A stretch of DNA of 63,926 nucleotides, counting the filler, from Dugesia japonica (Eukaryota), in the NCBI GenBank assembly GCA_001938525.1. It is 5 parts of 5 records of this genome, joined end to end, with 100 filler letters (N's around TTAATTAATTAA, not from the genome) between each part and the next. Parts side by side here need not be neighbours in the genome. Positions count along the whole stretch, not along the records: positions 32,685 to 53,337 come from MQRL01640044.1; 4 more parts are not named here. One strand, 5' to 3'. The position numbers and the translations under genes were made by a program. Below, in pieces: positions 4,729-63,316 of the stretch (within the stretch, counting starts at the first letter, position 1; each line of letters starts with the position of its first letter). A model generated the notes under the pieces. That model did no database searches and was not told where the DNA came from. It saw only the letters and a list, made by a program, of their open reading frames with translations.

Positions 4729-6195
<1,467 letters not shown>

Positions 6196-16493: not shown

Positions 16494-19400
16494 TATGTTT
16501 TCCTCCACGTCAAGAGAAGAAATGCTTTCTTTCAAAGATAATTGTTTTAAGTTATTCATACACAAGAGTTAATGGAATTTGTAAACAGTTTATTCATCAA
16601 AAACAGATAAATATTCCATGTCCAACACAACCAATAATCAACCAATCAGAATGCAATAACAATATTTATACAATAACAACAACAAATTATTACTATGATA
16701 ATTGTCAATGTAAATCTAGAGTTGTAAAGAAAACTTGTGATTGTCNATGTGGTAAAGATTCTAAAGTAATAAAATGTTCAAGAAATTATTTCTTGAATGA
16801 AGTAACAACAAAATATTATAAACGAGATTGTAGATGCTTCAAAACTGTAAATGATAAACAAATGGAACCAAGTTCGTATCTAATTTATTTATTATTCACA
16901 TTTTAAATTATTTTTTAGGTTGTCCTCGATTTATACATCTAACCGTCGGAAAATGCGAAATACAAAAGCACCATTCAATTAATCGAAAAATAACTACTCG
17001 AAATCTTGATAAAGATATTAGAAATTGCAAGTGTAAAGTAATAAGCAATCACGTTGATGAAGTTTGTGGCTGTAAGAAAGAAATCACAAAAAATAATGTT
17101 TGTACTAATAATAACAATTTTGTTATTCAAACATGGGGATGGAGAATTAATGTAAAGGAAAACAAATGTGACAAAGAATTATTAAATAACATGTCTAAAC
17201 TTATTTTTTGTCCACCAACGAGAAAAGATGTTGTTTGTAATTATAACATTGGTAGAGGCAAAGAAATAACTACAAAATACAACTTGGTCAATTGCAAATG
17301 TATTGAAAATAAAACTGTTAGACCAATAGATTGTAGATGCGATACAAGACCGGTTCTTGAACATCGTGGTGAATGTAACAAGATTACTAGACAAAGAATT
17401 GATGTTTATTTGCGTAAAGAAGCTAGAGGGGAACATTGTGTTAAAATCAAGGAAAATAAACCAGTATTTTGTATATGTAATAAAAATACATATTCGAAAT
17501 CTTGTGTTAATAATAGATTTGTGCATGTTAGAACTTCGTTCGATTTAGCAAATAATTGCCGAGAAATGATAAATAGAACAAATGAGGATATCAAGTGTTC
17601 TACTGACACTGAAATTAAGATATCACAATGTTATGACTACGGCTACAAAATTATAGAATTTTACAAACTAGCTTTGAACAATTGTAAATGTATACGATCA
17701 AGAACTGAACTACAGTTTTGCAGATGTATATGTCCTTCAAGAAAACTAGTTACAGAATGTGATAAATCTGGAAAATCACTAATATATATCCACTATGACT
17801 ATGAACTTATTAATTGTAGTTGTAAAGAAAACAAGAGAATGGAAATAAAACCAATTTCATGTAATCAGAGTAGTAAACATGTCTCTGGATGTAATGAAGT
17901 ATTATATAATGTTTTCTGGTTTAATACGACAACAATTATCGATTATGAGATTCACTATTGTAAATGTATTCCAACTATTAGAACTTTTAAATCTATTTGT
18001 AAAAAGAACGATTCTTTGATTATAAAAACCACATGTAACACGGAAAATAAAACCTTAATTGAAGAAGAATTGAGAGTGAAATTCGAAGATAATAAATTTG
18101 TTAATACGACAACAATAAAGAAGACTCCAATTACATGCAATGATAAATGGGTTATTAATAACAAACCTATTTGTCTTCCTAATGGATTGTATGGAACAGA
18201 AGATCGAATTTATCAAAGATTGATTTTCAGTAATTGTAGCTGTCATTTGGAAATAAAACAGGAAGTATGTGATTGTATATGTACCGGTCCATCTATGTCA
18301 GAGAAATGTGATGGAAATATTTTTCGTACATACGGTTATGAATATAAATATGGCGGATGTAAATGTGAACAACGCATAATTAAAGAAAGAACTGAGCGAA
18401 TTTTTTGTAAAAGCAAGATACTAAATGTCGGCCCATGTTATCGGAAAGATAATTATTGTGTAAAAGATGTCGAACATCAAGATTCTGTTTTAATTAATTG
18501 TAAATGTATTGAGAAAAAAAGAATGTCCCAAGAAATTTGTCACAGTTGTTGTAATGGTCGGTCTTCAACGAAAACATATTGTAATAAATCATTAAATAAA
18601 TTTATTACTGAAGTTAACTCTTGTCGCATAAATTTACATGGACTCATTCACAATTCTTTTGAATCCAAGGAGCAAGATATTCCGTGTAAAATTGAAAGAA
18701 AATGCGTGTCGATTAATGTTTGTAACAAGAAAACAAATACTGAAATACTTGAATGCACAACAACAAATCTACAAAATTGCTCGTGTGTATCGAAAACTGA
18801 AAAAGAAACTCAGACTTGTGGTAAATATACTTCAATTTATTTTAATTTTTTTTAACGTTTTTTGTTTAAATATTATTTAAATTTAAAAAAATTTGAAATT
18901 ATTGTATAAAATAAGTTCTTTAAAATAAAGAAAAAGCTTATATCAAAATAAAATGTATTTGAATTTCTTTACAAATATATTTTATTTTGATCGAAGCTTT
19001 TTCTTTATTTTAAATAAATCTCAAATCCGATCAATGGTTAATTCCAAAAATTATTCTCACAATAATTCTAATTATAAAAATAAATTCTATAAATACTTTT
19101 AATTTTTGATTAGATTATTAGAATTATTTTATTCATGAATACTAATATTTGTTCTAACATTTTCTGCATGTAATGGAGTTCCGTTTACATTGATTTTTAT
19201 TATTTCCATTTTATTTTAATCTATTAATCGATGTTTCTTTTTGTCACCATTTGATTGCCTCTTATTTCTTCATTATAGATATATTTCATTTATTTATTAT
19301 TTCATTATNNNNNNNNNNNNNNNNNNNNNNNNNNNNNNNNNNNNNNNNNNNNNNNNNNNNNNNNTTATTTGACATAGAAGTTTTTTGTTTTAATTTAAAA

Positions 19401-24227: not shown

Positions 24228-24672
24228 AAGAGTATATTCAGAGAAATGTAAATTCATGTAAAAGGAGATCAAATTTGTGGGACATGTTATCAGTAAAGAA
24301 AGTGTCATAACAGATCAAACTAAAATAGAAGCAATTAAGAACTTTTGTTAACCAAAATGCATTCAAAAAATGAGAAGCTTCTTGGGATTTCGCCATTTCT
24401 ATCTCAAGTTTATTAAAGATTATTCAAAAAAAACTAGATTTGCGGAACAACTGTGTAGTGGACTGAGTATCAAGAAGATTGAATGTGCGAATGAATTAGA
24501 AGAAGTTTTTAATGGAATGAAAGAAGCACTAATGATGTCTCCAACATTATGTTCTCCAGAAATAAATAGAGGATTTATTTTAGACACGGATGCGAGTTTT
24601 GATACGATTGGGGCCGTACTTTCCCAAAGGGACAACAATGGACAAGAAAGAGTAATTGCATATGGGTCATGA
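24228..24672 (+). pseudogene. pol: Ty3/gypsy pol fragment (RT C-terminus, connection, start of RNase H)
   Basis: KFVGHVIS, MRSFLGF.HFY.KFIKDYS and FILDTDASFDTIGAVLSQ...ERVIAYGS. Confidence 0.9.
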
Positions 24673-28128: not shown

Positions 28129-28680
28129 TCAAAGCCTTTTGTGAAAGGTTTTTTTTACCAGTGCGTAGTCCATTGTAAGCACAATTTTGTTCTGAGGTTG
28201 TATTTTATGTTCTTTTAAGATGCTCTTTAGCTTATTTCTTATTGTTTTATTATCGTTATGTTGTATTTTTTCTTTGATTTTTGTTGCTTTGTTTTCTTTC
28301 AAGTTAGAAATGACTGTTGGTTTTCCACATACCATTTGACTCGGGCTTTGGATTGTTTCGTAACCCTATTAATATTTGTGGCAATTTCTCGAGCCATGTC
28401 CTGTCGTTTGGGATTGTACGCAGGCTTTATTTTAATGTTCTGTAAACCTCTCTATTTTCCCATTACATTGCGGGTTATATGTAGTAGTTCTGTTCTTTTT
28501 AATTTCGTATTTGTTGCACAGATGTTTGAACAACTCAGATTCAAATTGTCTTCCTTGATCTGTTATTAGTGTTTTTGGTTGTCCATAGCGAGCGAACAAA
28601 TTTAATTCTATATTCTTGCAAATGTTTGCTGCGGATATTTCTTTCAGTGGGATAACGCTCAAAGTAGCATAAAACCCAGT
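28129..28680 (-). pseudogene. Ty3/gypsy integrase fragment
   Basis: ARYGQPKTLITDQGRQFESELFKHLCNKYEIKKNRTTTYNPQCNGKIERF (rve core). Confidence 0.9.
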
Positions 28681-32584: not shown

Positions 32585-32684
32585 NNNNNNNNNNNNNNNN
32601 NNNNNNNNNNNNNNNNNNNNNNNNNNNNTTAATTAATTAANNNNNNNNNNNNNNNNNNNNNNNNNNNNNNNNNNNNNNNNNNNN
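32585..32684. other. Artificial contig linker N44-TTAATTAATTAA-N44
   Basis: Same structure as 9534-9633. Confidence 0.9.
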
Positions 32685-33363
32685 TATATTTGTCTGGTTT
32701 TCTCTTTATGCTTAGTATTCGCCTCTATTCGTCTTGCTTTTGTTGTCAACTCTTCTAAGTTTTTATACTCTGCTGCTATCAGAGCATCTCGAATATGTTT
32801 ATGTGTCCCATTTAGAAACTGAAATTCTATAATATGACCCGTATTTTCTCCTTTTCCAAAAGCTTTTTCTGCTAACCTTGTTAGCTCATATATATATTCA
32901 CCCACTGTTTCATTTGCTGATTGTACTCTATCTCTAAATTTTTTTATACAAATTCGTTCTAATTCACTTGGGACTATTATCTTTTTCCTCAATTTTGGTA
33001 TTAACCCATCCCATTTATCCGATTTGTTGTCTAAGTTTTTATAGCATTTTAATACATGTTCTTTTAAGTAAAGTGGTAACCTTTTAACTAGTTCTGCTTC
33101 TGTCCATCCACAAGCCGTGGCACAAACCTGAATATGCTCGAAATACTCATCAAATTCCTCAGGTTTTCTTGCATAGAATTGTATGGGTAATATATTTAAA
33201 TAACCTTGGTGACTAAATCCACCTCCTACTTGACCATTCAATAGTAAATTTCTGAAAGGTGTATTTTCATCGTTTTTATTTCCCGTAGTCATTTTTTTAA
33301 TCTCTCTATTTCTCAAATTATATACTATATCTTCTTCAATGATTATTCCTTCGGTATCTTTTC
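32685..33363 (-). CDS. gag: Ty3/gypsy Gag, capsid region (partial)
   Basis: FYARKPEEFDEYFEHIQVCATACGWTEAELVKRLPLYLK...RVQSANETVGEYIYELTRLAEKAF...QFLNG, typical of retrotransposon capsid/MHR. Confidence 0.85.
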
Positions 33364-33725
33364 NNNNNNNNNNNNNNNNNNNNNNNNNNNNNNNNNNNNN
33401 NNNNNNNNNNNNNNNNNNNNNNNNNNNNNNNNNNNNNNNNNNNNNNNNNNNNNNNNNNNNNNNNNNNNNNNNNNNNNNNNNNNNNNNNNNNNNNNNNNNN
33501 NNNNNNNNNNTTATATTATCAGAACTTTGGTAAGAGATTGCGGCAGGAATTCAATCCAAATCTAATACCAAACTTAAGATAATACAAATTAATCAACCTT
33601 GATAAGAGACCGTAGTAGGATTTTCTCCAATGTCTGATATCAAACTGACCAATACACAGTATATTTTAATAAAGGTCTGAACACCCGCTTGATTTTAAAC
33701 TAATTTTAATAATTTTGGTACTTTT

Positions 33726-35526: not shown

Positions 35527-36202
35527 TTAAAATATGCATACTTGATCATCTTCATAATTCTCCAACCATACAGATTTTAACAAAGGAACATCACCAACAA
35601 TTATAGGTTCAACAATATTACTATAGATGAACATTCGATGTAGATTAGTGATTAATTTCGGATATTTAGCACTAATGAATTTAGTATGGACTATATTTAT
35701 ATAATGGCGAGTATATGTTTTTCTGTCTAATCTCAATGATTTTGCCAAGAAATTATCGAATGTAACACTTTTAACATTTTCCAATAACGAAAATCGGAAT
35801 GGTTCATCATTTTTTATAGTAAATGTTTTGAAAACAGACTTACTCATTTTTGTGATGAAACGACTAAATTGGTCAAAATTCGATATGTAATATTCGTTTT
35901 GTAAAGATATGAATTTATTAGTTTCTATTGAAAACACTAATTTCATNNNNNNNNNNNNNNNNNNNNNNNNNNNNNNNNNNNNNNNNNNNNNNNNNNTTCG
36001 TTTTGTAAAGATATGAATTTATTAGTTTCTATTGAAAACACTAATTTCATTTTCATAACATCAATCGAATTATTCTTTTTTAAGTTTTGATATTGTATGG
36101 TAGAATCTGATTCTTTATTATTCCTTAAAGTATTAAATCCAAATCTTTTGGCATCTTATAAATTGTCAAATATTACAACATAATCATGATGTTTAAATAT
36201 AA
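35527..36202 (-). pseudogene. Maverick/Polinton minor capsid (penton) C-terminal fragment
   Basis: RMFIYSNIVEPIIVGDVPLLKSV motif. It is homologous to 54591-55103 (QLYIYSSIVDLILFGDVRVLLLRSI; DAKRFGFN versus DARLLGFN). Confidence 0.75.
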
Positions 36203-36601
36203 TTAGTCGGGGGATAGTAGCGCACGACCCCATTTTTTTAAAGCAGTTATCAAGGATTTAATACACCTTGAAAAAATTGGCAAAACAATCGAGATATACA
36301 ATGTAATACCTGTGGAAGACGGAGACATATAGCCTGCGACTGTAGGAGTAGAGGTAATAATAGCAACAACAATCGATTTTGTGCCTATTGTAAGAAGACT
36401 AACCACAACATAGAAACGTGTTTCTTGAAAAATCCAACCGTCTGCTATAAGTGTAACAGAAGAGGACATATGGCAAAAGAATGTCAAAACGGTAATAAAA
36501 CAAATTATAATCGGAATCCGAATACGAATTTGGATAATCTAATGCAAGAAAATGAGCGATTAAAGTAAAAAGTAAATCAAAACAAGGGACAAGTTAATTT
36601 A
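36203..36601 (+). pseudogene. gag: Gag nucleocapsid with three CCHC zinc knuckles (missed by the ORF track)
   Basis: From 36302: CNTCGRRRHIACDC, CAYCKKTNHNIETC, CYKCNRRGHMAKEC. Same frame as ORF 36602. Confidence 0.9.
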
Positions 36602-39309
36602 GTGCATCAAAGTACTTTCGACAATGTGTACTACAAGGTGCAACAGGAAAATGACTGGCTCAAGTGGCAAAACCAAGATTTGCAGGTACAGCAGGAGAGA
36701 CTAGCCAAAAGAAACCTATTAAATGAACCATACAAGAATCAGTGCAATATGGTTAGGACGCACAGGCAAATTTATAACCAGCATGACGAAAAAACGGAAG
36801 TTACCGAAATGGAAGATACTCGAAAAAGAATATTGATTACGTCGCAAGAATTTGACTGGACTAAAGAGATCATCTATAAAACAATAAAACCGTCAGTACC
36901 GACCACCGGAAGAAGGCCACTGATGAACCAGTTCCTCCGATCATATCAACACCCACAAGTACACGCAAAGGTAAGGGCTAACTGGCAGAAAACAATATCG
37001 GATTATATCACCGAGCTGTATAAAGAAACCCAGTTAGAAGACTATGAGTTAGAAATTCAATATGTATGGCATAACAACGTAGAGGTCATTCCAAAAGGAG
37101 TTAAGGTACCATTAAAAGGGTTGAATGTACGACATTTGAAAGAAGCTATGAACGAGATAAAATGGAGCAAAGTAAATGGTATCAAGGGATGACTGTAAAC
37201 TCGTTTCTCGAATTACCACCGTTTGACGCGCAGCAACGATGGAATGGAAAGTGGAGTGAGCACAGACTGCTATTAGGTAATATAGGAATCAATATTCTTC
37301 CAGATGATCGGAATCTAATATTTAACGGAGCACGACCCCATGAAACTACCATAATTAAATTTATAAATTGGGATTCGGTATTCCGACCACAAACAGTAAT
37401 TCAGGAAATAGAAACTGACGAACTATATCATAATCTTGAGGAAACATTCCTAAAGGAAATCGTTCCAATCCAGTCTCAAACATAAATACGGAAACGATTG
37501 GGGACGGTAAGGCTAATGGACTATCCAGAATTGGAATAAGCCAAAGCGTCACGATTATCCTTGGCACGAATTGATGAGATACTGATAGCGGCGCAGAAAT
37601 TACATGACACGATAAAGAAAGAAGTATACCTAAAGTTGACAAATCGATTGGTCGAACTATTGGAAGTGATACAACTAATTACCGAGTGCGAAAGCGATTG
37701 GACAGAATGGTTACCGGTGCATTACGAATGGGTAATATCCAACATGGGATTATCGGATTACCAAGTATGGCTATATAACCCGGAAGGAAATATGAAACTG
37801 ACGCTCATATGATTAATGGTAGAGGATCTGGAAGCTGCGCTTAAGCAAGCTGGTTATCCAAGCATAACCGATAAATATGTATGCACACCAAGTGCTATGG
37901 TAGATTTTACCGCCAGAAAGAAACATCTATAAGATTTTGGAGTAAAACCAGAAGAGGGCACTGAAATCGTAGTATTGGACAAACACCGTGGTATCGACTA
38001 TGACATCAGGATAACAAAAACCGGAAGATCAGCTTTAAAAATCATAGGAGAAATGGAATATCTATATAAACAAGGAGTAGAGCCAATTAAAATCAAGATA
38101 CTTTCCACGGTACTCGAAAAAAAAGATAAACTGACAAAGGAGGAGAGGAAACAGTTGTTAATGACGCGTAACGACTTCCTCACGCAGCGATTGGAGAGAA
38201 AAGAGAGGAAATGCAACATGATAAGAATGCGACAGATGCCATCGAGAGAGGTAGTAGCAATGCGTAAGGTGGAAGAAATGGTTAACCGAGTACAGATGAA
38301 GAAGGAGAACCTACCCCGAGAAACCTGTCGGATGATAATGAATAGAATCTATGACATATATGACGGACTAGAAATACCGGAGGAAATCGAGAACCAATGG
38401 CTCGTGATTAGGCAGAAAAAATATTGGCAAATACCAAAATTCAGGAATCTAAATTATATTTGAATAAAGGTTAAAATGAACAAGAACTGACTAAATACAG
38501 TCGATTAAAACCACAAGGAATAACCATGATAGATTTAATGGATGCCATTACCGATAAGTGGTGAGAACAAGAACTAAACATGGTACCTCTGTTCATAAAT
38601 GGCAAATTGGTCGAGACAGACGACGAGGATAAGCACATATTCCAATGCCACGTAAAGCCTGGAGAAATATGTGAGTTGGATGTAGATGAGGAGCCATAGG
38701 CGGGTCAATCACCGGATCTCGAGGAGTGAATGGAAGAGATAACAGAATTATACGTATCCGAGGTATTGTCTGGTATAAAGAAACAAGTAAAAGAAAATCA
38801 GCGAATACAGAATATTGATAACCTACCAATAACCACCACCAAATCAGTTGTATTTCCGGAAGGGACACCAACAATACGCGATATTCGGATGAAATATACA
38901 AAACCGATAACGGAAAAATCCGCTACGTTTCACGCTATCAACGATCTGTTAAAAGTAACCCGAGAAACTCGACCAGTTGTGAATATCAAAGTATATCGGA
39001 AAATGATGAATAATCTACGGGATTTGGCAATTTATGGACAGCTCAGCTTGTGGGCTCCAGCACAATGGTTGAAAGAGAAAAACCTATACAAAGAGGAAGT
39101 ACAGAATACATCCACTTTATCCGACTATTCTCTCAGAGTCAGCCTACTTAGTAAAGAGGGAAGCATAAAAAAGGTAGATATGAGAACGCTGAAAGGACTA
39201 ACGATCAACCATATCATAAAACCAATCAAGAAATGGCTATGGCCAAAATCACTCAAGTCCTATAAAATGCAAGCAGAAGCAACAAAGATTATATTAGCCG
39301 AGAAAGAGA
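36602..39309 (+). pseudogene. ~900-aa polyprotein region of unknown function between Gag NC and the glycoprotein (ORF pieces 36602, 37162, 37561, 37975, 38730)
   Basis: Near-continuous coding fragments on one strand, broken by stops and frameshifts; no motif recognised. Confidence 0.6.
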
Positions 39310-41615
39310 ACCACTACAATACTCTTATTATCCCTAATGATGGGCAGAAGTGAAGCCATATTAGCATACGACTGCGATGGAATGCAAGTTGGAAAGGAAG
39401 TATTCTCATTAATGGATACAAAAGAATGTACAGATGCAAACCCAGAGAAAATCTTACTCCGTAATAATTCCATTTATCATCTATATTAGGAGTCAGATTA
39501 TTATAAGGCCAAGTACGCGAATGTACAGTAACGGTAAAAACATTTATATTTTATTGTGGGTATTACAGTTAAACTTCGGTCATTGATCCAGGAACAGTAA
39601 GACATCCTGTAAATCTAACCGGACAACAAAGCGATGAAGGATTTTCCACAGGAAAGATCACCATCAAACATGGGACTCAGGTCATCGCCAAGAAAGGGCA
39701 TGTAATCGACCAACTCATAGAAGCAGCAGGAAGTATATCTTCACATAAAGGTCACTGCGAATACGGTACATACACTATACGAGGAAAGGTCTGGGAGTAT
39801 GCGGTAGCAATTGAAACCTATAACGTATAACTCAAGGAATACGAGGCATTCTTTGATGCCCAAGATTTGACTTTGTAAGGAAGGTTATATTGCAAAGCAG
39901 CAGATGGATCAGGTAATAAAGGTACATCAACATTAACATATAAAGTAGAGCACCAGGACTGTAAATTAGCACACTTAAAAGAAGCAATGTTCAATTAATA
40001 TCAAGGGCAACGAGCTATAACGCCTATCGATCAAGCACCAAAGGAGGGTAATCTAAACGATAGAATAGATAATCTCAAAGAAACGATAAGATCAGGGCAA
40101 AGATCATACGATCAACAATGGCACACAACTCCTAAAGTGTTAATGTCCTCAGAGCAAGATGAGACCATCCGGCTAATTAAAGGAAATGCAATGTCAAAGT
40201 GTGGGCAAATAGAGTATAAAACGAACTACAAAGGAATATTCGTTTCGGAACATCGTATAAAAACAGCTCAAGCCGCAGTGATGTCACAGGATATCAAATT
40301 GCATCTGTATGCCAATAATAAAATGGATAATTTATTTCATCGCATGTAAGATACCATCGGACATATGTACCACGATCTTATTCAAAATGACTGCACAATA
40401 AATAAAGAAATATTGAAGACAAAATTAGCAATGGCGGTTACAAACCCAGATAGTGTCACTCCTCTACTTCATTCGGTAGAGTAGTAGGAGAAGTAATTTA
40501 CCTGTACAAATGTAAGGCTATAGATGCAAAAGTTCTCTTCTAATCCAAAAAACTGATATAATGAAATAGAAATTATCCACAACAACGATAAACGGTACGT
40601 ACAACCATTTACGCGAATCATATCACCAATGGGTTATAGGCCAAATATCATAAATTGCTCTAACGTATTTTGGCCACAATACATAATGACAGATGGTTCA
40701 TGGATACGATTTCCGTAACGAATGGCAGTGAGAGTCGAACCACAAAAATTCTCCATGTTACGGTTGAATAGGGGTATGCAATTCACTCCAATTGACGTAA
40801 ATAAAGGAGGAATTTACAGCCGGGAAGATCTGGAGAAAGCCAGGGAATACATGCTGTTCCCAGTCCGAAGGATGCAAATTCTATCAAATATAGTACAATT
40901 AACCAGTGGAACTAACAAAGATGAACGAGTGAATTGCGATGCATTATTGTCAGCAGATCACTTTCAAAAAGTCACAGAAAACGTAATGCAAAAAATGTGG
41001 GGACGATTCATCATATTTGGACAAGCAATGGCAGGATTGTTGGGAGTTATGCTGATAATTTCGGTAACACGAGTAGTGATTACTCAATTGTTCGCATTTT
41101 TTTATATATACAAAAGAGAGAAAAAGGTGAATTGGAAAATGGTAATGGGATTATTTCCATTTTTAGCCAAGACTATGGTGCTTAATAGTCACTCCAAGGA
41201 TATTGACAGGGTAAAGAGATTCATTCCAAAACTCGGACAAATACGAGGATCAGNCAAGGAAGTTATAATGCAACTCAGACTATTATGCGAAGAAATGAGC
41301 AACGCTAAGAAGAAAATATCTTATTTCAACCAATTCAAAGAAAGATTTAAAAATAAAGGCGAAAGTAGTAGCAACAGTGACGACGTTAGAGGGGAAAGCA
41401 GTGGAACCCCTCATGTACCCAATTATAAAACTGCCATGGAATATGTCACAGAATTCAAAAGGCAGCAATACGAAAAGATCAGCAAAATGCAACGACTAAA
41501 AAACGCGTTAAAATTCGGAGGAGGAGAAAGCACACCAGCACCAGCGCAAATGTATTATTACGCCTATCCGCAACATGGTTGGCAACCCATGAACCAACCA
41601 CTCCAACAAGTATGA
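39310..41615 (+). pseudogene. env: Chuvirus (Jingchuvirales)-type envelope fusion glycoprotein, decayed
   Basis: Signal-like TILLLSLMMGRSEA|ILAYDC...FSLMDTKEC; REC.V.VKTFIFYCGYYS*TSV; GEVIYLYKC; QPFTRII..NCS..PQY...GSW; GGIYSREDLEKAREYMLFP; TM region WGRFIIFGQAMAGLLGVMLII. This motif series matches chuviral glycoproteins as I know them. Confidence 0.85.
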
Positions 41616-41809
41616 GCACCAGGTCCCATGTACAACAATCCGTATGTAAGCCCACTACAAGCCCAGAATATGGCGCTATTAACGGATAACAATGTATCAA
41701 CTATGGACCGAAGAATAATCGAACAAAACTTACGTACTCCAAATAACCAGATTAAGGAGGAGGATAAGTTAGAGACTCAAACCGTATGTATGATGATTTC
41801 TCAAAAAGC

Positions 41810-42100
41810 AAAATTATTACAGAAAAGGATACAAATCGACGGAAGATTGGTAATAGCTATTATTGATACAGGAACAAGTACGACGTTAGTCCATAAGAGG
41901 ATATTAGAAGATTATTGCCTACTTAGAATAACAATCAAAAAGGAGTTATCATCACGGCCTTTGGAAAAGAAAAATCTCACCCATTGGAGAAGCAATATGT
42001 GCGTTAGAAAGCGATGGAATCCGTTTCTGGCATAAACTGCAAATAATGAACGAATTAACGTTCGACTGTTTATTGGGGTTGGACCTCTTGCCACGCCTCT
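41810..42100 (+). pseudogene. Retropepsin aspartic protease domain 1
   Basis: IQIDGRLVIAIIDTGTSTTLV (DTG at 41865-41873), then after a frameshift ...FDCLLGLDLL. Confidence 0.85.
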
Positions 42101-42439
42101 GTCCCGAGGGAATATTGGATTTGAGAAAACTAACGATACGAGAAAACTACGATTAAGAGTATGCACTGGTAGGATATCAGAAAACTAGTATAATAACCCA
42201 ACAGAAACGACCACAACAATTGAATCAGCCAACACCCAACCGACTGAGACAGCGGCCAACTGGCCGAAATAAACAAAACAATTCGAATCAAGACCGTCAG
42301 AAAATCACCAATACAACTACCTTGATAAGGGGCGATTGGATAAGGTTTCAAGAACGAGAACCAAGATGGAAAAACAAAATACCAACAAACTGCAATCATA
42401 ACCCTTCAGATGTAGTATGCGCAAGTCTCAATGGCGGAC

Positions 42440-42723
42440 CAGTATTAACCATTATAGTTAAAATCAACGGCCGACCCATAACAGCCCTATTGGATACCCG
42501 AGCAACCATATCGTTGTTGTCAATAGATGAAATTGCGATAACCGAATACAAAAACACACTACCCACAAACACTATAGCAGATGTGGCAAATGGTAGTAGC
42601 CTCAAAATTTTTGGAGAATTGGCCTGTGAAGTCAAATATCAGGTTAAAAAAATTAAACACAATATGATCATAGTAGAAATGATGGGCCAGTGTATTCTAG
42701 GGACAGATATTCTTCGAGTCTAG
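42440..42723 (+). pseudogene. Retropepsin aspartic protease domain 2
   Basis: VKINGRPITALLDTRATISLL (DTR, one base from DTG), ADVANGSSLKIFG and CILGTDIL. Confidence 0.85.
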
Positions 42724-45700
42724 ATGAAAAATGGCATATTAAACTTCTCAACATTACGGTTACAATCATTGAAAGGTTATACCCGTGTGAAGGATCACGA
42801 AGAAGAAATTTTGGTACCCAGTAGATGCCAAGTATATTGTGTGGTCAGTACCAAAAGTGCCTATGAAGGAGATTGTTATTTCGAACCGTATGACGGATTT
42901 ACACACCAGTACGAGATACCCACGGCAGGAGGAATAAACATGGTCAACAAAAGTGGGGAAGTACCAGTTAACTTAGTTAATTTTACAGAAAAAGATATCA
43001 CAATTAAGCCAAACTCCAGGATGGGTACACTAACCCCCATCGAACCTGAACCCGAAGTGATAGAAGAAATAGCCCCTGAACCGGAAATTGATAGAACATT
43101 TAAAGTGGAAACGGAAACTTTATCAGAAGACCAGAAACAAGCAATACTACAATTGTTGGAAGAATTTCGAGATATTTTCGAATGGACCGATGAAGAGTTG
43201 GGTATGTGCACAGCAAAAATGCACGCAATTCCGTTAACAGACGAAACTCCATGCAAACAGAAGCCATATGCCATGACAGTGGAGAAAAAAGAGTTTGCAA
43301 ATAAAGAAACAGCTAAATTAGTGAAAATCGGTGTGATAGAACCATGGCAGTCGCCAGTAGTGTTAGTAGATAAAAAGGATGGGACGCAACGATTCTGCAT
43401 TTATTACAGACGGTTGAACGCTTAAACTAAGAAAGACACGTACCCATTGCCAGATATCAAGGAATTACTGCAATTACTTTGTAACGCTAAAATATTCACT
43501 ACGTTAGATTTGCGAAGCGGTTATTGGCAAATTTAGATCAAACCAGAAGATAGGGAAAAAACAGCCTTTTCCACAGGCAAGGACTTATACCAATTTATCC
43601 GTAGGCCATTTGGACTTACTTATGCACCAGCCTCTTTCCAACGAATGATGAATTACGTAACTCACGGCATATCTCAATGTATGGCCTATATCGATGATCT
43701 ACTTATCTATTCGCCAACCTTTGAAGGGCACCTTAATGACTTGTGTATTATGTTTGTACGACTACGTAAATGGAATTTAAAAGTGAAACCCACCAAATGC
43801 GAATAGGCCAAGAATAAAGTAACCTATTTAGGCGAACTAGTATCGGAAATTCATTAAGGATTTCGCTAAAATTGCGAAGTCAATGCAGGATTTGGTTAAA
43901 CAAGATACTGCCTTTAAATGGGGACCGGAACAACAAAAGTCGTTTGAAACATTACGAGATAAATTACTAACTGCACCAATTCTGGTACACCCAGATTTTA
44001 AGAAGCCATTTATATTAGCCACCGACGCTAGTGGATACGCGATGGGTGCAGTGTTAAGTTAATTAGACGAACAAGAAAGATAAAGAGTAATCGCATATTT
44101 TAGCAAGAAATTCCAAGGAGCAGAGTTAAGCTACAGTACTACAGAACAAGAAATAATGGCTATTGTAAAAGCCACCAAAGATTTTTGATCACTTATACAT
44201 GGTCATGAGGTATTAATCTATACAGATCATTTACCAATCACTTTCATGGCTCAGAAACCATTACGATGGAACCGGATGGCAAAATGGCAGTTAGCAATGC
44301 AGGATTATTGTCCATTATTAAAATTTAAAGCGGGAAAAGCAAACTCAAATGCCGACTGCCTGTCCAGAATTGGTGGACCAGAAACTACAGGAAATACACC
44401 AGAAGATTTCGAAACGTTTACAGGAATTATTAGAGAAAAAAGTAGGCATGGTTTACTTTATACTAGCTGAAGATAGGAATTTTGATGGATTTAAACAAGC
44501 GCAAGCTGACGATGAGGAAATCCAGGTAATCACAAAATATATGGAAAATTACAATTTAGAGAAGTTAGAATGTGAACCCAAGATGAAGGAACACCTAAAA
44601 AAGAATGAGGGTCGTTATGCAATTACCAAGGGTTGGTTGACAGCTCAGAATGGAGATAATACCGTGTTGGTTATCCCTAAGGCAAGACGGGATAAGCTAC
44701 TTGAACAGTATCATAATGGTGTATTAGGAGGACATTTGTCCCATAAGAAAACTGAGTCAAAATTAAGACAGAAATATTACTGGCCACATATGACAGAATC
44801 AGTGCTGCCAGAAGAGGAACAGGAAAAGGAGTAAAAGCGTTATTAAAGCCCATCGCTGTACCAACCGCTCCAATGGAAATCTTTGCTATGGATGTAGTTG
44901 GACTATTACCTCCAACCCTAAGCGGAAATATTTACATAGTTACCATAATGGACTACTTATTTAAATTCCCAGAAGCATTTCTAATGAAAAATCAAAAGGC
45001 AAAAACTATAGCCGATATTTTGGTACGAACATTTTTCAGCAGATACGGTGCACCAAAGAAAATACTGACGGATCAGGGAAAGAGCTTTATGAGTAACATC
45101 TTAGCAGAAATATCGAACTTCCTTAAAATCCACCAACTACGAACCTCACCTTATCATCCTCAAACAGATGGGTTAACAGAACGATTTAATAAAACTTTGA
45201 TCAATATGTTGTCCAGTCACGCTCAAAAGGAACAAAATAACTGGGATAAACCTATTCAACTATGCCTATTTGCATATCGAATGAGTGTGCACCCCGCAAC
45301 TAAATACACCTCATTTGGTCTTATGTATGGGAGAGAATGTAACATGCCTATTGACTTGGAATTCCAGCCACCGATAACCTAATATCAAGATGAAATGGAC
45401 TTTGCCGCAAATTTCAAAGAGACCATACAGAAAATATGGAAACAAGCCAAAGAGAATGTAGGATTTTACCAAGAAAGTTATAAAGATTTACACGATAAAA
45501 CAGCAGTGCAACATTCTTTTAAAAAAGGCGACATGGTATTAATCAATTTACCAGACATTTGTGTCGGTAGGACATCGAAATTAAAAAGACCATGGCAAGG
45601 ACCGTATGAGGTAATCGAAGTAACAGAAACTACCCTCAAGGTTCGAAAGAAGGGGAATCTACTAGAGAATCCAAAGATCTACCACGCCAACTTGTGTAAA

Positions 45701-45775
45701 AAGGCAGCAGTGACAGAAGAAGCTGCGCCAGTCACAAGCACTGAGCCCACCGCAACAAGCTATGATGGTACTTAG
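42724..45775 (+). pseudogene. pol: Pol: possible dUTPase-like linker, reverse transcriptase, RNase H, integrase (zinc finger, DDE core, GPY/F)
   Basis: SPVVLVDKKDG.QRFC, LDLRSGYWQ, PFGL..APASFQR, YIDD (43687), TDASGYAMGAVL, YTDH, H..GGH...YYWP, MDVVG, TDQGKSF, PYHPQTDGLTERFN and WQGPYEV. Several stops, frameshifts and small deletions. Confidence 0.95.
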
Positions 45776-47080
45776 TAAACCACTAATAAATCCTTCACCA
45801 TGGAGGAGTAAAGAAACAGTGGTAAAGAAAAACAGTCTCAGGGAGGACGCTGAGTTTGAAGAAAACGGGGAAGGATTAATAACGGGAAAAAAGAAAAAAG
45901 AAAAACAAGAAACGGGTCTACCTGCTGCGAATATAGAAAGACCAGAAACATAGTTACGAAGGATAACTAAGGTATTATAGATGGATGTTTCTGAACACGA
46001 CATCAACCAAGAAAAAGCTAAGGAGGGTAGTACAATCATAAATACCTCACCGAGTATTTCGGGGATAAAACAAACATGTAAAAGAGGTAGAATTAAACAT
46101 ACACTGAGCAATATTCAATCTCAGCAAACGCAGCAAAGTGCATCATTGATTAATAATAAAGAAATTGTTAAGAAACAAAGAGATAAAACATTGTCTTTCG
46201 ATTCAGGTAACCAAATGCGCCGACCACTCATGATAGAGGCTATGAGTGCCACCACAATCTATCCAATCACATATCAAGGAATGCAAACACCTAGAGCAGA
46301 GGAGAATTGTGCCCATATCGGAAAAATAACATGCCCACTGACAGTAATGCAGTTAGAAAGAAACTGTTCACAATGTATAAAGAAAACGCAAATTATACTA
46401 AAAACCACGTGGAAGGCTATTTACGATCAGAAAGCATGGTTATCAAGATGAGAAAATTGGTTCAAAAAAGAGTCTGAAGGATCACAAATTGAGCTACCAA
46501 TTGAAGCACCTATCCGGCAATCCACCCTAAAAAAAAGTTGGGTTTATCTTGTGCCGAAGTATATAGTGAAGAATTGTTAACATCTGTTCAACTATTTCAC
46601 CATATACTAGTGCAATGGAATTGGATTAGATTATACGAACCATTGGAGATCCAATTGCCAGGGAGCATGATTACACCAGCTATCCAAAATAAATTAACTT
46701 GGAAGAAATCGAAACCAATCAATATCGCAAATTTTCATGAAGAGTTTAAAAAGCAAAGGAATTTGACGAAAGAAGCATTTCAGAATCAAGGGGACGAAAG
46801 GAAGGAAAAAGAAAGACAACTAACCAGAATAACGTCGGGAGGAAGAATAAATTAGAAGCGACATTAATACCAAAAGAGGTGGATCAAAGAAAACCAAGAA
46901 AACAAGAATGGGATTACAATAATAGTAGTTAAATTATCTCTACTATTATGGGCAATAATCAACACAAGTTGGGATTACGGCATATTAGTGTGGTTAACTA
47001 CGAAACTTATCAGAAATACGGAGAAGGACAAACCCATATAAATTATAATATACGGAATCACATGGATAATTCTACTCTGA
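45762..47080 (+). pseudogene. Post-integrase coding region of unknown function
   Basis: Consecutive ORF pieces 45762, 45981, 46538 and 46948; charged and low-complexity, with one C/H-containing segment (CAHIGKITC...CSQC). Confidence 0.45.
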
Positions 47081-48648
47081 TTGATATCACCAGCACTGGC
47101 AACACAACAAGCACAAAAGTTCAGCCAAAATAAAATTCTTAGTATCAAAAGTATATTGATTATCTTAATAACGGCTATACAGGAAATACAAAGTCAGGAA
47201 TGCTGGGTGAATGAACCAGTATTGACAGAACATAGGATAGCCACGGGAAAAGACGTATCCATTAGTCGCTCGGGATTATTAAAAAAGTGGAAAACACAAC
47301 CAATGCATTATACCGGGAAAATGGCGCTAGTACCATTAATAAAAAGTCAAAAGAGCACAATGGTAAAAATAGATGAAACAAAAAGGAGAATAAAAGTACA
47401 CCTCTTAAGCCAATCGCCAATAGAAGGCCGAGTGATATAATTTGGTCTGGATAAATGGGTAATAAATTCCGTGGTGGATATAAAATGTGAAAATCCAGAC
47501 AATCCATTATTGTATGAAATNNNNNNNNNNNNNNNNNNNNNNNNNNNNNNNNNNNNNNNNNNNNNNNNNNAAATTCCGTGGTGGATATAAAATGTGAAAA
47601 TCCAGACAATCCATTATTGTATGAAATGAAAGCAGAATTTGAAATAGTGGGGAGTTGCAACATCCTGATATACTATATAGAAGACAACCTTTGAACTAAG
47701 AAGTGGGAAACGCGGAAAACCCAGAACCAAGAAATAAAAATATGCGCAAGAAGCGAGTTTAACTATCATACCATTATTTGACAGTTCCAGCGCTATCGAG
47801 TAAAAAAATTTGGAGAGGAGATAAAAAAGGAAGGGCAAACAAGTATAACCTTTAATCAAGGTAAAAGAGTGCATTCAATCATTGCATCATGAATTTAAAG
47901 ATTGGAAACCATATTGGCAAATGGGCCCATACTCATTCCAAGTAAAAAAGATCAAGAACAAATATTACCTAAAATTCGATAGAAAGATTGAGCAATTAAT
48001 ATTGCACCAATTCAACGATTTTTCTAACTGGTGGTGGAAAATGGATACCGGGTATTGGCCTGTGAAAGCAAACGCAGAAATACATTTTGGAGAATTAAAT
48101 AAAGATATACTGGGAATCGAATTTACGACTGTAATAAACCAAGATCGAGTAATTAAAAAGAACATAACAAAAGAACCAGAGTTAACTACCAAGAAAATCA
48201 CCACAACTTATCCATCAACGGTATCGATAACCACAGAAAAGGAAAAACTCAACACAGAGTGTAACCAAGGGAAAGGAGAAAAAAGATCTCAATTCCTTAA
48301 CAATTGGATGATGAATATACGCAAATTTGAATCTAGAGGAAACTATTGGGAAGTAATGGAAGGACTCTCGACTACATATCGTCCAATTACCAAGTTACAC
48401 AAGTAAGAAGTCAGGAAATGGGGTATGTTGTGGGAAAAGGAAGCGCCGTCATTACAATACTCTTAATCAGCATCGCATGCATATGCAAATCGCAACCTAA
48501 GAAAAAGAAATACCATCGTCATAAAAAAGAACGCCCTCTACCTTTAGCACCACCAAGTTATGAAGGGCTGATACAGAGAATGCCATTTGAAACATTACCA
48601 CCTTACATGCCTTGGGTGTACCTGGTACAAGGGGTAATGACGTGCTAA
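47081..48648 (+). pseudogene. Second type-I membrane (env-like) protein at the canonical env position
   Basis: Signal-like ILSIKSILIILITAIQEIQS|QEC, a Cys/Trp-containing ectodomain, a Thr-rich stalk (TTKKITTTYPSTVSITT), TM VVGKGSAVITILLISIACIC, basic KSQPKKKKYHRHKK, and a tail with PPSY (48550-48561) and LPPY. Confidence 0.65.
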
Positions 48649-48748
48649 GCAAATGTTGAATTTGTGTAAATATTGTAAATTAGAACATAATAAATATATA
48701 TAGATGTAATTAACATTATCATATTAACAAAAACCAATTATTCAGAAA

Positions 48749-49351
48749 ATGAATCAGATCGGAAATGAAAGTGATTATACAAGTATAAACGAAAATGAAT
48801 CAATGGACTCACAAAGTGGACTAAAGAATGCTAGTATGACAAGTTATATACGTAGTAATTCGGTCAGGAGCACTACTTCAATAAATAATAATAACGCCAT
48901 CTGTTCCCAAAGAACAATCAATGAAATATGGAGAGACCATAACGAAGCAATAAAAGAATTATGGAATAGTGCAAACACCCAAATGCAATGGACTCAACAA
49001 CGATTAGAAGAACTAGAATGCAATCAAATTCAACTAGTACAAACCCTAATAACAACGAAACCCTTAGATTGGTGCGAATTGGACTTTAAGAATAAAATCT
49101 TACAACTACAGAATGAAAATCTCTACTCAGAAACCCTTATGTGTCGGAAACAACTAATAGAAAATCGACGAATGCTGGAAATCGTCACAGAAAAGCAAAA
49201 CTACCCAATGGAGTTGGTAGCTAAGCAACACGACCTAATCCTCGATCAGTCAAAAGAACTTAAATACCTAAACAAATTAGTAAATTCACAAAGTAGGGAA
49301 ATCGAGACACTCAAGACCCTGAGTGTCCGCAACCAAGTCAGTTTTGTCTGA
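48749..49351 (+). CDS. Accessory coiled-coil protein (200 aa, intact ORF)
   Basis: S/N-rich N-terminus then heptad-rich helices; TTCAG|AAAATG context. Confidence 0.6.
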   Translation: MNQIGNESDYTSINENESMDSQSGLKNASMTSYIRSNSVRSTTSINNNNAICSQRTINEIWRDHNEAIKELWNSANTQMQWTQQRLEELECNQIQLVQTLITTKPLDWCELDFKNKILQLQNENLYSETLMCRKQLIENRRMLEIVTEKQNYPMELVAKQHDLILDQSKELKYLNKLVNSQSREIETLKTLSVRNQVSFV

Positions 49352-49598
49352 AATCTAAGAGAGAGGGGGAGTTTTTAAAAAAAATATATATATAAAATAA
49401 ATAATAAAATAAATAAAAATAAAGAAGTGATTAATAAAAAAATAAATAAGTAAATACTTATATTTATGTATATATATGCCTGTATTCGACACAAGTAAAC
49501 CTGTACTCGAAGTAATATAACATGATGTATAAGAGGAAATCAAAAAACAATATAATAGTATTATATAATCAGAAGTAATAATATATCTCTTGTAGATA

Positions 49599-50643
49599 AT
49601 GGAATTCAATTTCGAAATATCAATACATGAGGTTAGACTATTTTTGGAAGACCCAGATATCAAATCGTTGGACATGAGCAAAGGACGAGAGGAAATCAAG
49701 CAAACCCCAGTAACACAAAACATAATGCACTACCGTAACGTATTTGCAGCACCGGAAAATTTCATAAGTAAAAGGGTGTGTTACAGCACAATGACAGTTT
49801 TTGATGAGAAGTACACAAATGGGGCATGAATGAGCAACCCAATAGAGCACATAGAAAATGGTTTCCTACCTGTCCATTCCTGCTAAATGTAGATGTAAAC
49901 AACAAATCCCAACTAATTAAAGGAAGAAAGCCCGAAATCGAAGAATCAACAATGGAGACAAAAAAGTTATATTGTAAAATAATAAAAAATTTAGCGGAAG
50001 TAGCAGTCCCAGAGGATCTCGAATTGAATATCGAAGAAAGAGAAAAACCTTCCAGAAAATACCAAATCTGGAAGAAAAAACAATGGAAGGATTATATCTC
50101 GTCCAGCAAACCAGAGATAAAGTTATCAAATGCGCCACTTGCAAACGAGAAACTCTACTACTTCAAGGAATAGAGAAATTACCAAAGAAAATATTCCATC
50201 AACCGAATTGTTTAAGATTAACACCAATCAACAACGAAGAAACACAACCAACAGCATGTAGAATCGAATGAAATATGTCGAGTAAAAGAATAGAAATGGC
50301 AATGGAATTACAGACTAACCAGCTGGCTAATACCTTAAAGTTATATAGGATGAATATCAAACAGTTAATAAAACAAACGGTCGCAGAAAAAGGGTCTGGA
50401 CTAGTCACACCATATGAGTTATACCAAAGATCACTCAAATCGGTAAAACCACAGGTGAAATATGAGCAAGAATGGGTTTTGCTAGATCATGATTGCGTTA
50501 TCTGCCTTGGAGAGACCATTGAGGTCATATTTTTGTCATGTGGGCATTTCAAAACATGCTATAAGTGTGCTTTACACTTAAATGAATGCCCTATGTGCCG
50601 AAAGGTAATTAAACACAGGGTATGGGAAATAAAATTTCAATAA
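49599..50643 (+). pseudogene. iap: Inhibitor of apoptosis (BIR - BIR-like - RING) carried by the retroelement
   Basis: BIR1 end HKWGMNEQPNRAHRKWFPTCPFL has W-x9-H-x6-C spacing. BIR2-like GLYLVQQTRDKVIKCATCK...FHQPNC. C-terminal IAP-type RING CVICLGETIEVIFLSCGHFKTCYKCALHLNECPMCRKVI. Two frameshifts and one in-frame stop. Confidence 0.87.
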
Positions 50644-50741
50644 ATCAATAAACTGAATATGTAAATAATATATAATTATATATACTTATAACTGTCAAAA
50701 TGGTATTAAAATAAATTAATCACTCTCCCTGATTTTAGAAA

Positions 50742-51116
50742 ATGAACACTGAAAACTTGATAAACCATTTGCGTAACGAGATTCAAATATTGCAAATTCA
50801 AACCCAAACTCTTACCACTGTACCTGAAGTCCTAAAATGGAAATTGGAATCCAAAATCGATGCAATATCAAATTTGCAATTGCAAAAATATAATAGTGAG
50901 TTGGAAAGTCAAGTCGAAAGAGCGCACCTAGAGCTAGAAAATAAAAAACGATCCTGCAAGTCCCACAAAAAATAAATTAAAAGTAACATTGATGCAAACC
51001 GAGCAAAAGTAAACGCGATAAAACAGGCTCGCGAATGGAAAAGCAAATACGAAAACGTGGAACCCAAACGTAAAGAATCCGAAAGCAGTCAACATACCGA
51101 AGGAGAAGTAGACTGA
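50742..51116 (+). pseudogene. Accessory coiled-coil ORF (one internal stop at 50973-75, open again to 51116)
   Basis: TTTTAG|AAAATG context; heptad repeats. Confidence 0.5.
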
Positions 51117-51375
51117 TAATCATTAAAGTCGATGTAAATAAACTGTTATTAATACCTAGACTATAAATTACTTATTAATAATAATCGGATAAAGGAACTT
51201 TGAAAATATTGATGTATACAGTAATTAAATGTATAGTGTAGAAAGGTTTTATGTATGTGCTGAACAAATAACCTGTAATGACCTTAAACTCATATTGATC
51301 TGTCAGTTTTATTGGGAATAAAGGAGTTTCTGCAACGAGGATGGACTATGGCAAATTCCGGGACGGAATTTAAAC

Positions 51376-51391
51376 AAGACGGAGAGCGATT
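51376..51391 (+). promoter_or_regulatory. Polypurine-tract-like sequence before the 3' LTR
   Basis: CGGGACGGAATTTAAAC-AAGACGGAGAGCGATT, immediately followed by TGTTGGG. Confidence 0.65.
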
Positions 51392-53337
51392 TGTTGGGAT
51401 GAAACACCCGCTAAACGAGAATAAAGCCGAAAAGGCAGATCAACGAAAAGAATAGCAGAACCACTATAGTTCGTAATAATGAAATAAAACATATAATCAT
51501 CATTAGAGGGGAACAAATTAAAATCCAAGATAAATATGAAGAACCGGGTAACATAGAAGCAACTTATGTTTGGAAATTAAGAAAAATTATTAAATTAATA
51601 ATAAATAGCAAAGAAAAGTGGTTTTAAAATAATTAATTAACAAAAGAAAATTAATTAATTTGAAAATAAAAAAGAAGCGCAATTAGTCAAAAATCTGTTT
51701 TATCCAGATAACTTCGTTCAAGGAAGTCAGAAAGAAACCGGACAAGAAAAAATGAGAAGAACATCAAGATACAATTGAAATAACGAAGAAGAAAAACATA
51801 CCACCTTGCAGAAGGGTACTGCAAGGTTTCCAAGATCCAGCCAATAGAAAACCAATAAATAAAAATATAACAAAGACACAAATGTCAGGTGTCATGATAA
51901 AAATAGCTGCCAATTGCAGCACCAAAATTCTTAGAAAAATTTAGAAAATTGGCTCGGTAACCAATAATATCCAATAAAGGCTGATCCAAAAATAATTAGC
52001 AAATCTAAATCAAGTCGGGGTGTCTCAGAAATCATATAAAAAGACCCCTGAGTTTAACAGAAAAAAAACACAAAAAAACCAAAACTAAAACCACTAATTT
52101 TGTAGATTCATTGCTGTGAAATTATATCAATTACCGGTTAACCCAAGGTATTAACGGAATAATATTAGTTATCGCGTATCAGTCGTGATATATCAGAAAA
52201 TTAACGTAGTTTAAATTTTGCGGTGTGAATCGTGAATAAATTTATTATTTAGAAAACAGGGAATTACAAGAACTCTCAATTCAAGAATCGCATCCAGTAA
52301 TTATTCGAATATTATATATAAACCCGTTTCAGGAATCTTATTAGTTTATCCCAAAGGAGATTAATTCGAAGTAATTAATATTTTGATTGTATTAAATGTG
52401 TGTGCATATACAATTTATTATAATCTACTCTAATAAATTTGATTGTTTTAATCTGCTATTATAGAAAAAAAAATTCATTATAGTTTATCTAATAAATTTA
52501 GCTTTGATAAATTAGAATTTTGCTTTTGCTATAATTTCTTTTATGAAATTTAGTCATATTAAAATTCTTTACAATGCAGGAATATTAGTACATAAAATTA
52601 AGAAATAGGAACGATAGAGGATGAAAACCTCATTACAATGGTGATTCTTGAATTTAATATCGTTTCCCTGTATAAACTAAATTTAATTAATATTTTTCGG
52701 ATGAATATCAGAGAATGTTTTAAATAAACGGGAAATGGATTACAGTGAGTTACTACATTCTTATCTCTTACGCTACGGTTAAATAAACGAATATGTTTTT
52801 TTTATTTTATCAGATAATCAAACTACATGACTGATCCTTTAACGCAAACATTAAAATTTATCCGGTTTGAACGGCGTAAATCTCGGAGAAGACAGTTGTT
52901 GACTCACATCTTATCGTGTGGTGTAGTCGAGCACCCCGACGAAACAGATCTCCAGTATTTCGCCGAGATGTTTCCGTCCAAGAATCGAGTTGATATAGAC
53001 GAGGAATAACCCATTGCTCCACTCTAGGATGAAACACCAACGTGCCTCAGGTGGAGCGTCTGTGGCACGATGGACCTTCCTTAATCGGTGTTACCACAAA
53101 TCGATTGCCTTCCACTTCGCAATTATCCTCCTTTGTTCAAAACAATCTTTGGAGTGCACGAAATGAGGCTGCTAATAGCAACAATGAAAAAACCGAGGAA
53201 GAAATTACAGAAGTTTCCGTGTAATGTTATTAGGCAGAATAAACGTTGTTAACCAACTCTTCATTTTTTTGTATCAATTAACCCACTTATCTTCTTTTAC
53301 TAAATTATTTATAAGTTAAGATTCAGACTTTGTTCAT
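51392..53337 (+). repeat. Putative long 3' LTR (start TGTTGGG; end not seen before the linker)
   Basis: TG start after the PPT. TGTTGGG is the inverted complement of the CCCAACA LTR end at 33750. CCAAT-rich stretch at 51910-51975 and TATA-like CATATAAAAAG at ~52033. Confidence 0.55.
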
Positions 53338-57464: not shown

Positions 57465-58040
57465 TAATTTTCTCGGTGAGATCGAATGTGGTCAATTTTT
57501 GACTAGTTTAGATCAAATTGATCTAATTTTTCCTAGGGATTGGGAATTTTTTAGATGATTGGGTTCAATTTTTTCCCCGGTTTTGGTCAGTTTGTGTACT
57601 TTTTGGGCGATTCGATCAATTTTTGGGTGGTTTAGGTGAAATTGGTCCAATATTTCCTCGGGATGGGTAATTTTTGGGTGATTAAGGTGGAATTGGTTGA
57701 ATGTTTTCTTGGTGAGGTCGAATGAGGTCAATTATTTGGCTGGTTCAGATAAATTTAGTTCAATATTTCCTCGGGATTGGTAATTTTTGGGAAATTAAGG
57801 TGAAATTGGTCAGATTTTTCCTCGGGATTGGTAATTTTTTGGGTGATTTAGGTGAAATTGGTTGATATGTGTTTCTCGGTGAGCTAGAATATGGTCAATA
57901 TTTGAATGGTTTAGAGTAAATTTTAGGTGATTTGGTCAAATAATTCCTCGGGATTGCTCGGATTCGGTAAAGTTTGGGTGACTTGGTCTAATATTTCCTC
58001 AAGATTGGTCAGTTGGGTTAATCTTTGGACAATCTTTGAC
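57465..58040. repeat. Left arm of a long inverted repeat, made of internal tandem units (GGTGAAATTGGTC...TTTCCTCGGGATTGGTAATTTTTG)
   Basis: Near-identical reverse complement of 62610-63135; it produces identical 72-aa pseudo-ORFs on opposite strands. Degenerate units continue to ~58520. Confidence 0.9.
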
Positions 58041-62609: not shown

Positions 62610-63316
62610 TCAATAATTTGTCTAAGATTGTCCAAAGATTAACCCAAGTGACCAATCTTAAGGAAATATTAGACCAAGTCACCAAAAATTACTCTAAACC
62701 ATTCAAATATTGACCTATTTTACCTCACCGAGAAACCTTTCAACCAATTTCACCTAAATCACCCAAAAAATTACCAATCCCGAGGAAAAATCTGACCAAT
62801 TTTACCTTAATTTCCCAAAAATTACCAATCCCGAGGAAATATTGAACTAAATTTATCTGAACCAGCCAAATAATTGACCTCATTCGACCTCACCAAGAAA
62901 ACATTCAACCAATTCCACCTTAATCACCCAAAAATTACCCATCCCGAGGAAATATTGGACCAATTTCACCTAAACCACCCAAAAATTGATCGAATCGCCC
63001 AAAAAGTACACAAACTGACCAAAACCGGGGAAAAAATTGAACCCAATCATCTAAAAAATTCCCAATCCCTAGGAAAAATTAGATCAATTTGATCTAAACT
63101 AGTCAAAAATTGACCTCATTCCACCACACCGAATAAATTCCCAACTAAATACACAGGGGAAAAGTAACACCAAATTAAGTAATATTACCTAATGATGCAA
63201 TTTATGATGCAATTTTTAAATTTCCAACTAAATACATTAGGAATAAATTTATTAAGTCACGGCGGGGGGAGGCTACTGAATGTGTGCGTGGTGCGGACTG
63301 CTTCTATCGATCTACT
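62610..63316. repeat. Right arm of the long inverted repeat, ending in a Maverick-like terminus (...GATCTACT at 63316)
   Basis: Reverse complement of 57465-58040. The minus strand starts AGTAGATCGATAGAAGC. Confidence 0.8.

Follow-up and report, generated by a model that had tools for sequence, protein, structure and literature searches.

A conserved, exchangeable membrane-protein module behind the integrase in a clade of Burro-like Gypsy elements

Does a long terminal repeat (LTR) element that already encodes a fusion glycoprotein carry a second membrane protein behind its integrase, and what could such a protein do? The question is raised by a decayed Burro-like Gypsy (Metaviridae) element in a 63,926-nucleotide (nt) stretch of Dugesia japonica DNA (GCA_001938525.1; five joined records), referred to here as the window. 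The original prediction, made from the sequence of positions 47081..48648, described a second, unrelated type-I membrane protein with a PPxY late-domain-like motif and proposed an envelope with distinct attachment and fusion proteins. We find that the membrane-protein module behind the integrase, conserved in position and exchangeable in content, is a real and apparently new feature of a clade of Burro-like Gypsy elements, and that it is most likely the C-terminal part of the Pol polyprotein and not a separate gene.

The evidence for the clade feature comes from an integrase search with 543 matches, of which the 120 listed were examined. Ten relatives (P0001-P0010) were set apart by 44-50% identity and E-values of 1e-77 or better, the next listed match having 2.7e-60. 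In a tree built from the window, the ten relatives and every fourth of the other 110 listed matches, the window and the ten form one clade (support 99/97). Eight of the ten run in frame past the integrase to a strong transmembrane (TM) segment near the C-terminus, and such a segment was found in 0 of the other 110 listed matches, including 0 of 78 with at least 200 residues after the integrase match, which is a modest control that weakens the comparison, as the long C-terminal extensions there seem to be other pol domains. P0001 ends early and its contig reads on without a frame change as far as a TM segment, while P0008 has neither TM segment nor signal. The threshold for a signal core is passed by seven of the ten relatives and two more are signal-like by eye. 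Tandem FN3 domains make up the ectodomain in most relatives and a small Cys-rich domain does so in one. As this in-frame layout of signal and TM segment after the integrase is shared among the relatives, the post-integrase membrane slot is a feature of the clade, and in the relatives the module is part of Pol. A second unit of signal, FN3-like repeat and TM segment occurs in P0007 (residues 45-237) just upstream of the protease, so that the units flank Pol on both sides.

The window shares the layout of its relatives, with signal, ectodomain, stalk, TM segment and tail following the integrase (Table 1). The signal-like stretch, the Thr-rich stalk, the TM segment with CIC, the polybasic run and the PPSY and LPPY motifs of the original prediction were all located where it had put them, and its ectodomain of about 400 amino acids corresponds to about 370 codons from the cleavage site, predicted by eye before 47195, to the TM segment, or 392 from the signal core; the signal-to-TM distance in the relatives is 132-402. 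The proposal that one type-I membrane protein follows the integrase and bears no relation to the fusion glycoprotein upstream is supported. The term glycoprotein rests mostly on the stalk, because the ectodomain holds a single N-glycosylation sequon (48161) and the hydropathy of the signal is weak.

The pieces of the module occupy frames 2, 1, 2 and 1 in order, and the path that joins them was independently selected by a codon model trained solely on the Pfam-supported parts of the element (48 of 53 windows correct in leave-one-out trials). This is the same path across the pieces that the original prediction had followed. Stops per 1000 codons amount to 6.0 on the module path, 7.2 in pol and 72-80 in the other frames, a comparison that is partly circular as the path search penalises stops. 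The module is broken by stops at 47438, 47692 and 47779 and by frame changes near 47855 and 48340-48400. On composition and the codon model, the DNA of 36200-48648 is coding-like throughout, but the copy is broken. The 50-N gap within the ectodomain was also rightly suspected to be spurious, because exact flank overlaps were found in all four gaps of 50 N in the window (54, 57, 28 and 15 nt), whereas the other 20 gaps (at least 10 N) overlap by at most 4 nt. The gaps at 9534, 24128, 32585 and 53338 consist of 44 N, TTAATTAATTAA and 44 N and are assembly spacer.

Table 1. Coordinates of the element and its parts in the window
Position	Strand	Feature	Evidence or remark
36200..52300	+	Burro-like Gypsy (Metaviridae) element, decayed, 5'-truncated	gag-env-pol-membrane module-accessory open reading frames (ORFs); ends approximate
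36272..36565	+	Gag remnant, three CCHC knuckle-like motifs, N-terminal part lost	zf-CCHC E 2.9e-4
39298..41111	+	First envelope: internal signal, mononegavirus/chuvirus-type fusion ectodomain, TM 41001-41111	PF24664 Monjiviricetes_fusion E 1.6e-60 and 2.7e-5; hydropathy
41829..45772	+	Pol: two aspartyl-protease motifs, dUTPase-like stretch (weak), reverse transcriptase (RT), RNase H, integrase	Pfam
45773..47131	+	Hydrophilic coding-like linker from integrase to signal, ~450 codons	frame ambiguous at 46844-47087
47132..47194	+	Internal signal-peptide-like segment	hydrophobic stretch 47132-47191, Kyte-Doolittle (KD) hydropathy 1.71 (19-window)
47195..48169	+	Ectodomain, beta-rich composition	holds three stops, one frame change, 50-N gap
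47521..47570		50-N gap, flanks with 57-nt exact overlap	assembly artefact
48170..48250	+	Thr/Ser-rich stalk	Ser/Thr 10 of 27 residues
48418..48486	+	Transmembrane segment, CIC at end	KD 2.2
48487..48648	+	Cytoplasmic tail, 53 residues: polybasic run, PPSY (48550), LPPY (48595), stop 48646-48648	
48749..51116	+	Accessory ORFs with AT-rich spacers between, including BIR-like + RING (IAP-like) unit ~49599-50643	Pfam; composition

The element stands out as roughly 16 kb of A-rich DNA (GC about 0.37, against 0.2-0.3 in the AT-rich flanks); its layout and the base composition would suit a flatworm host. Pfam searches in the three forward frames gave the domain order CCHC knuckle, Monjiviricetes fusion glycoprotein, aspartyl protease, RT, RNase H, integrase and RING with a weak BIR. 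The order of the Pol domains and the Gypsy-type integrase are those of Ty3/Gypsy (Metaviridae), and the position of env between the gag knuckles and the protease is that of the GAG-ENV-POL errantiviruses. The dUTPase-like stretch between protease and RT (E 0.016; 15.5 bits, below the cut-off of 22) lies where Burro has one. The RING match is strong (E 9.6e-13) and the neighbouring BIR falls below the cut-off (E 0.006); together they were counted as BIR and RING cargo. No Pfam match to MATH, SUMO-like, BCL2-like or ankyrin domains was obtained in the decayed window copy, and no LTR pair was present among the 20 largest repeat families listed for the window, the element being cut at its 5' end. 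This copy, truncated inside gag and interrupted by stops and frame changes all along it, is dead.

How could a membrane protein be made from the end of Pol? Since the signal is not preceded by any in-frame ATG, we place the module of the window copy in Pol, and its continuity with Pol there is quite probable. It would then be the last module of a long Gag-Env-Pol polyprotein. The TM segment of the first envelope would return the chain to the cytosol for protease, RT, RNase H and integrase, and we infer that the second internal signal redirects it into the endoplasmic reticulum, where signal peptidase would free a type-I protein of ectodomain, stalk, TM segment and tail, whose synthesis would keep pace with that of Gag and Env. 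The slot is fixed in the clade and its content exchangeable, with FN3 tandems, a Cys-rich domain or the domain present in the window. On the particle, or where cells touch, the freed product may serve as an accessory surface protein with target cells or extracellular matrix as binding partners, with fusion performed by the class-III-type envelope and with the PY motifs setting its turnover or sorting via a Nedd4-type ligase. This attachment or adhesion role is ranked first (probability roughly 0.45) on the grounds that the module goes with a structural polyprotein and mostly contains an adhesion or receptor fold.

An envelope of attachment and fusion proteins, as originally proposed, is plausible, and a fusion protein is indeed co-encoded with the module, both being seen together in the window copy only. 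It is possible, though still doubtful, that the clade as a whole uses a two-component envelope cut from one polyprotein, with a class-III-type fusogen before Pol and an exchangeable attachment protein after the integrase, the latter consisting as a rule of captured FN3 domains and exchanged from lineage to lineage (FN3, Cys-rich or other) to change the cells reached. Paramyxoviruses (H/F) and herpesviruses (gD/gB) have two-glycoprotein envelopes in which a second surface protein accompanies the fusion protein. The element in the window resembles them in this respect; unlike them, both of its proteins would be cut from one polyprotein in which they flank Pol, and the attachment role is putative.

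A number of observations weigh against these readings. The integrase of the window sits on a long branch of the tree, and its distance from integrase to signal (about 450-480 codons) is above that of most relatives, of which seven have 26-109 residues there and two have 264 and 668; the linkers of the latter two hold extra proteases or ankyrin repeats, ankyrin repeats being found in P0006. The window linker has no match to those of the relatives, and one of its four stops may be a real terminator. No homologue of the module was found among 3298 candidates or in 1.84 billion representatives, and there was no match in Pfam or PDB sequences. The relatives' FN3 profile scored as high in 128 of 500 and 286 of 500 shuffles as against the window ectodomain, and hhalign gave a probability of at most 0.2%. 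The FN3 fold of the relatives is therefore not transferable to the window ectodomain, which may be a more diverged FN3; a single-sequence structure model of the module reached a pLDDT of 37.6, and fold searches from it were uninformative. In P0007 the slot before the protease is occupied by the FN3-TM unit and not by a fusion envelope, and the env region lies beyond the sequences of all relatives. The architecture, position and clade distribution of the module and the FN3 fold of the relatives are firm; a fold alone shows no function.

Two rivals concern the structure of the gene. The module could be a set of fragments with no relation to one another, or hydrophobic stretches that arise out of frame in A-rich DNA, and merely mimic one protein; the missing homologue and fold, the weak signal hydropathy and the off-path hydrophobic stretches nearby (46904-46969 and 47030-47104) would fit this, but it is largely refuted and hardly probable at all given that the independent codon model yields the same path, that stop density is about one tenth of that off frame and that the layout is identical in the sister clade. 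Somewhat less improbable, yet still unlikely, is that the protein has an ORF to itself, starting a short way ahead of the signal, which is a question of gene structure compatible with any function. At a lower switch penalty the codon model favours for 46844-47087 a frame with ATGs at 46948 and 47062, the second about 24 codons ahead of the signal core, and the linker is long and unrelated to those of the relatives. However, the linker has no AT-rich spacer, unlike the ORFs after 48648, its stop density on the coding path is pol-like (9.1 per 1000 codons), and the modules of the relatives are in frame with Pol. Of the separate protein in the original prediction, the unrelated membrane protein therefore stands, while the separate gene is doubtful for want of a start codon and spacer and in view of the relatives' frame.

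The other two rivals concern function and turn on the tail. Both motifs are cytoplasmic by topology and lie in a Pro-rich tail, in which two L/PPxY motifs arise in 0.9% of shuffles and a single PPxY in 10%; as a pair is that rare, PPSY and LPPY are probably meaningful in the lineage of the window. Late domains recruiting Nedd4 and ESCRT to drive budding of a two-glycoprotein particle would accord with these motifs, with the retained parts of gag and of the env tail, which have neither PPxY nor PTAP, and with P0005, where PPSY stands 14 residues past the TM segment and which is likewise outside the FN3 subclade. Yet P0005 is the only one of eight relatives' tails with PPxY, and at least one is expected by shuffling in 26% of trials, so the conservation check went against the original prediction on this point and, as far as these sequences go, PPxY is not a clade trait. 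Late domains usually occur in Gag or matrix proteins, and the lost 5' part of gag may itself have carried such motifs; late-domain budding is thus clearly unlikely. Sorting or turnover would account for the PY motifs equally well, because PPxY and LPxY in a single-pass protein also mark the Commissureless and PRRG ligase adaptors, according to the available text of PMC5578492. The serious rival to an attachment or adhesion role, doubtful as it is, is a host-manipulating membrane protein that is not a particle component, with a captured receptor-like ectodomain, either a decoy or a protein that brings a Nedd4-type ligase to a host surface protein via PPxY/LPxY. Such a protein would resemble Commissureless/PRRG and could give superinfection exclusion or altered host-cell signalling. 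It would be in keeping with the two tail motifs, rare in shuffles and a Commissureless/PRRG signature, with the resemblance of PPSYEGLI to the extended motif GLPSYDEAL/GLPSYEQAV (both from the portion of PMC5578492 available), with the other host-directed cargo (BIR/RING) of the element and with the protection of stem cells by the Burro1 IAP, as cited in the accessible part of PMC13465017; FN3 tandems also form cytokine-receptor and phosphatase ectodomains. L/PPxY is missing in seven of eight relatives' tails, which argues that ligase recruitment is not the common function of the clade, and, unlike the other host-directed cargo, whose ORFs stand apart between spacers, the module is bound up with the structural polyprotein.

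Neither the first envelope nor its place in the element is new, as Burro and the GAG-ENV-POL elements have both. The planarian giant Gypsy element Burro/GYPSM1, so far as the layout description at hand goes (PMC6431247), has gag, a mononegavirus-like env and pol in one huge polyprotein with accessory ORFs. The element in the window is like it in its CCHC Gag, the env between gag and pol, the BIR cargo and the accessory ORFs, and possibly also in the weak dUTPase-like stretch between protease and RT and in a single huge polyprotein, and P0006 has ankyrins as Burro does; unlike Burro, the window copy gave no MATH, BCL2, SUMO or ankyrin match and no LTRs were seen. That description, in the part available, mentions neither a membrane protein after the integrase nor FN3, and no named Burro sequence was among the listed integrase matches. 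The GAG-ENV-POL errantiviruses of Nematoda, Bryozoa and Platyhelminthes, with an HSV/gB-type env, share gene order and env type (at Pfam family level) with the window, nine flatworm elements being given in Supplementary file 1; the accessible text (PMC13524379) lacks the terms 'fibronectin', 'late domain', 'accessory' and 'two env', and the post-integrase domain it discusses is a chromodomain. As excerpted, the report on sORF2 of MDG1-group LTR retrotransposons (10.1101/2025.03.14.642691) likewise describes the spread of an LTR element from cell to cell by means of a non-Env transmembrane protein, but sORF2 is short, fusogen-like and replaces Env, whereas the window protein has a 370-residue ectodomain alongside env. 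The likeness to Commissureless/PRRG, with a single TM segment and PPxY and LPxY in the tail (PMC5578492, in part), is one of motif and implies no homology; these are short host proteins, and the motifs are unconserved in the clade of the window. No membrane module or FN3 behind a Gypsy integrase is described in the literature surveyed, mostly at listing level; the primary Burro papers (Grohme 2018, Lee 2026) and Fig. 2A of PMC6431247 were outside this survey and may annotate the region.

Env-bearing Gypsy elements have been described with one envelope gene, and a module behind the integrase with fixed position and variable ectodomain departs from that plan. Should the module be an attachment protein, how elements choose target cells such as stem or germ cells becomes testable; a decoy or ligase adaptor would add a surface arm to the host manipulation reported for Burro1, and a two-component envelope would mean that fusion is separated from targeting in a retrotransposon.

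Several minor observations were made on the element and its clade. Two aspartyl-protease domains precede RT in the window (41829 and 42451) and in P0010, and additional ones follow the integrase in P0004 and P0006. A Cys/His cluster in the linker (46227-46385) gave weak matches to zf-Nse (E 0.016) and zf-C2HC5 (E 0.05) and is possibly a RING-like finger. A Y-x-[L/F]-R motif, mostly RYPLRS, occurs within 45 residues after the integrase in eight of ten relatives and nowhere on the window coding path; it is reminiscent of the chromatin-binding motif of foamy-virus Gag. Four or five short ORFs lie at 48749-51900, each preceded by an AT-rich spacer with AATAAA, and two look coiled-coil. The same Gypsy clade is borne by two contigs filed under bacterial metagenome-assembled genomes (L001, 1-4655, and L002, 1-1891), which are probably misbinned eukaryotic DNA.

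Elsewhere in the window, other LTR-element fragments were found at 32633-33550 (-), 24400-24669 (+) and 28438-28647 (-), comprising gag (E 4.8e-4) and pol-like pieces (E 1.9e-11). Highly Cys-rich ORFs (665 amino acids and neighbours) at 16493-20310 have no Pfam match. Inverted repeats of 410 nt (57466-57875 and 62730-63139; 97% complementary, 4.9 kb apart, with internal subrepeats) enclose DNA with no Pfam match in six frames and are probably a non-autonomous foldback or terminal inverted repeat element. A DEAD-box helicase exon of a host gene is present at 4990-6156 (E 1.1e-49).
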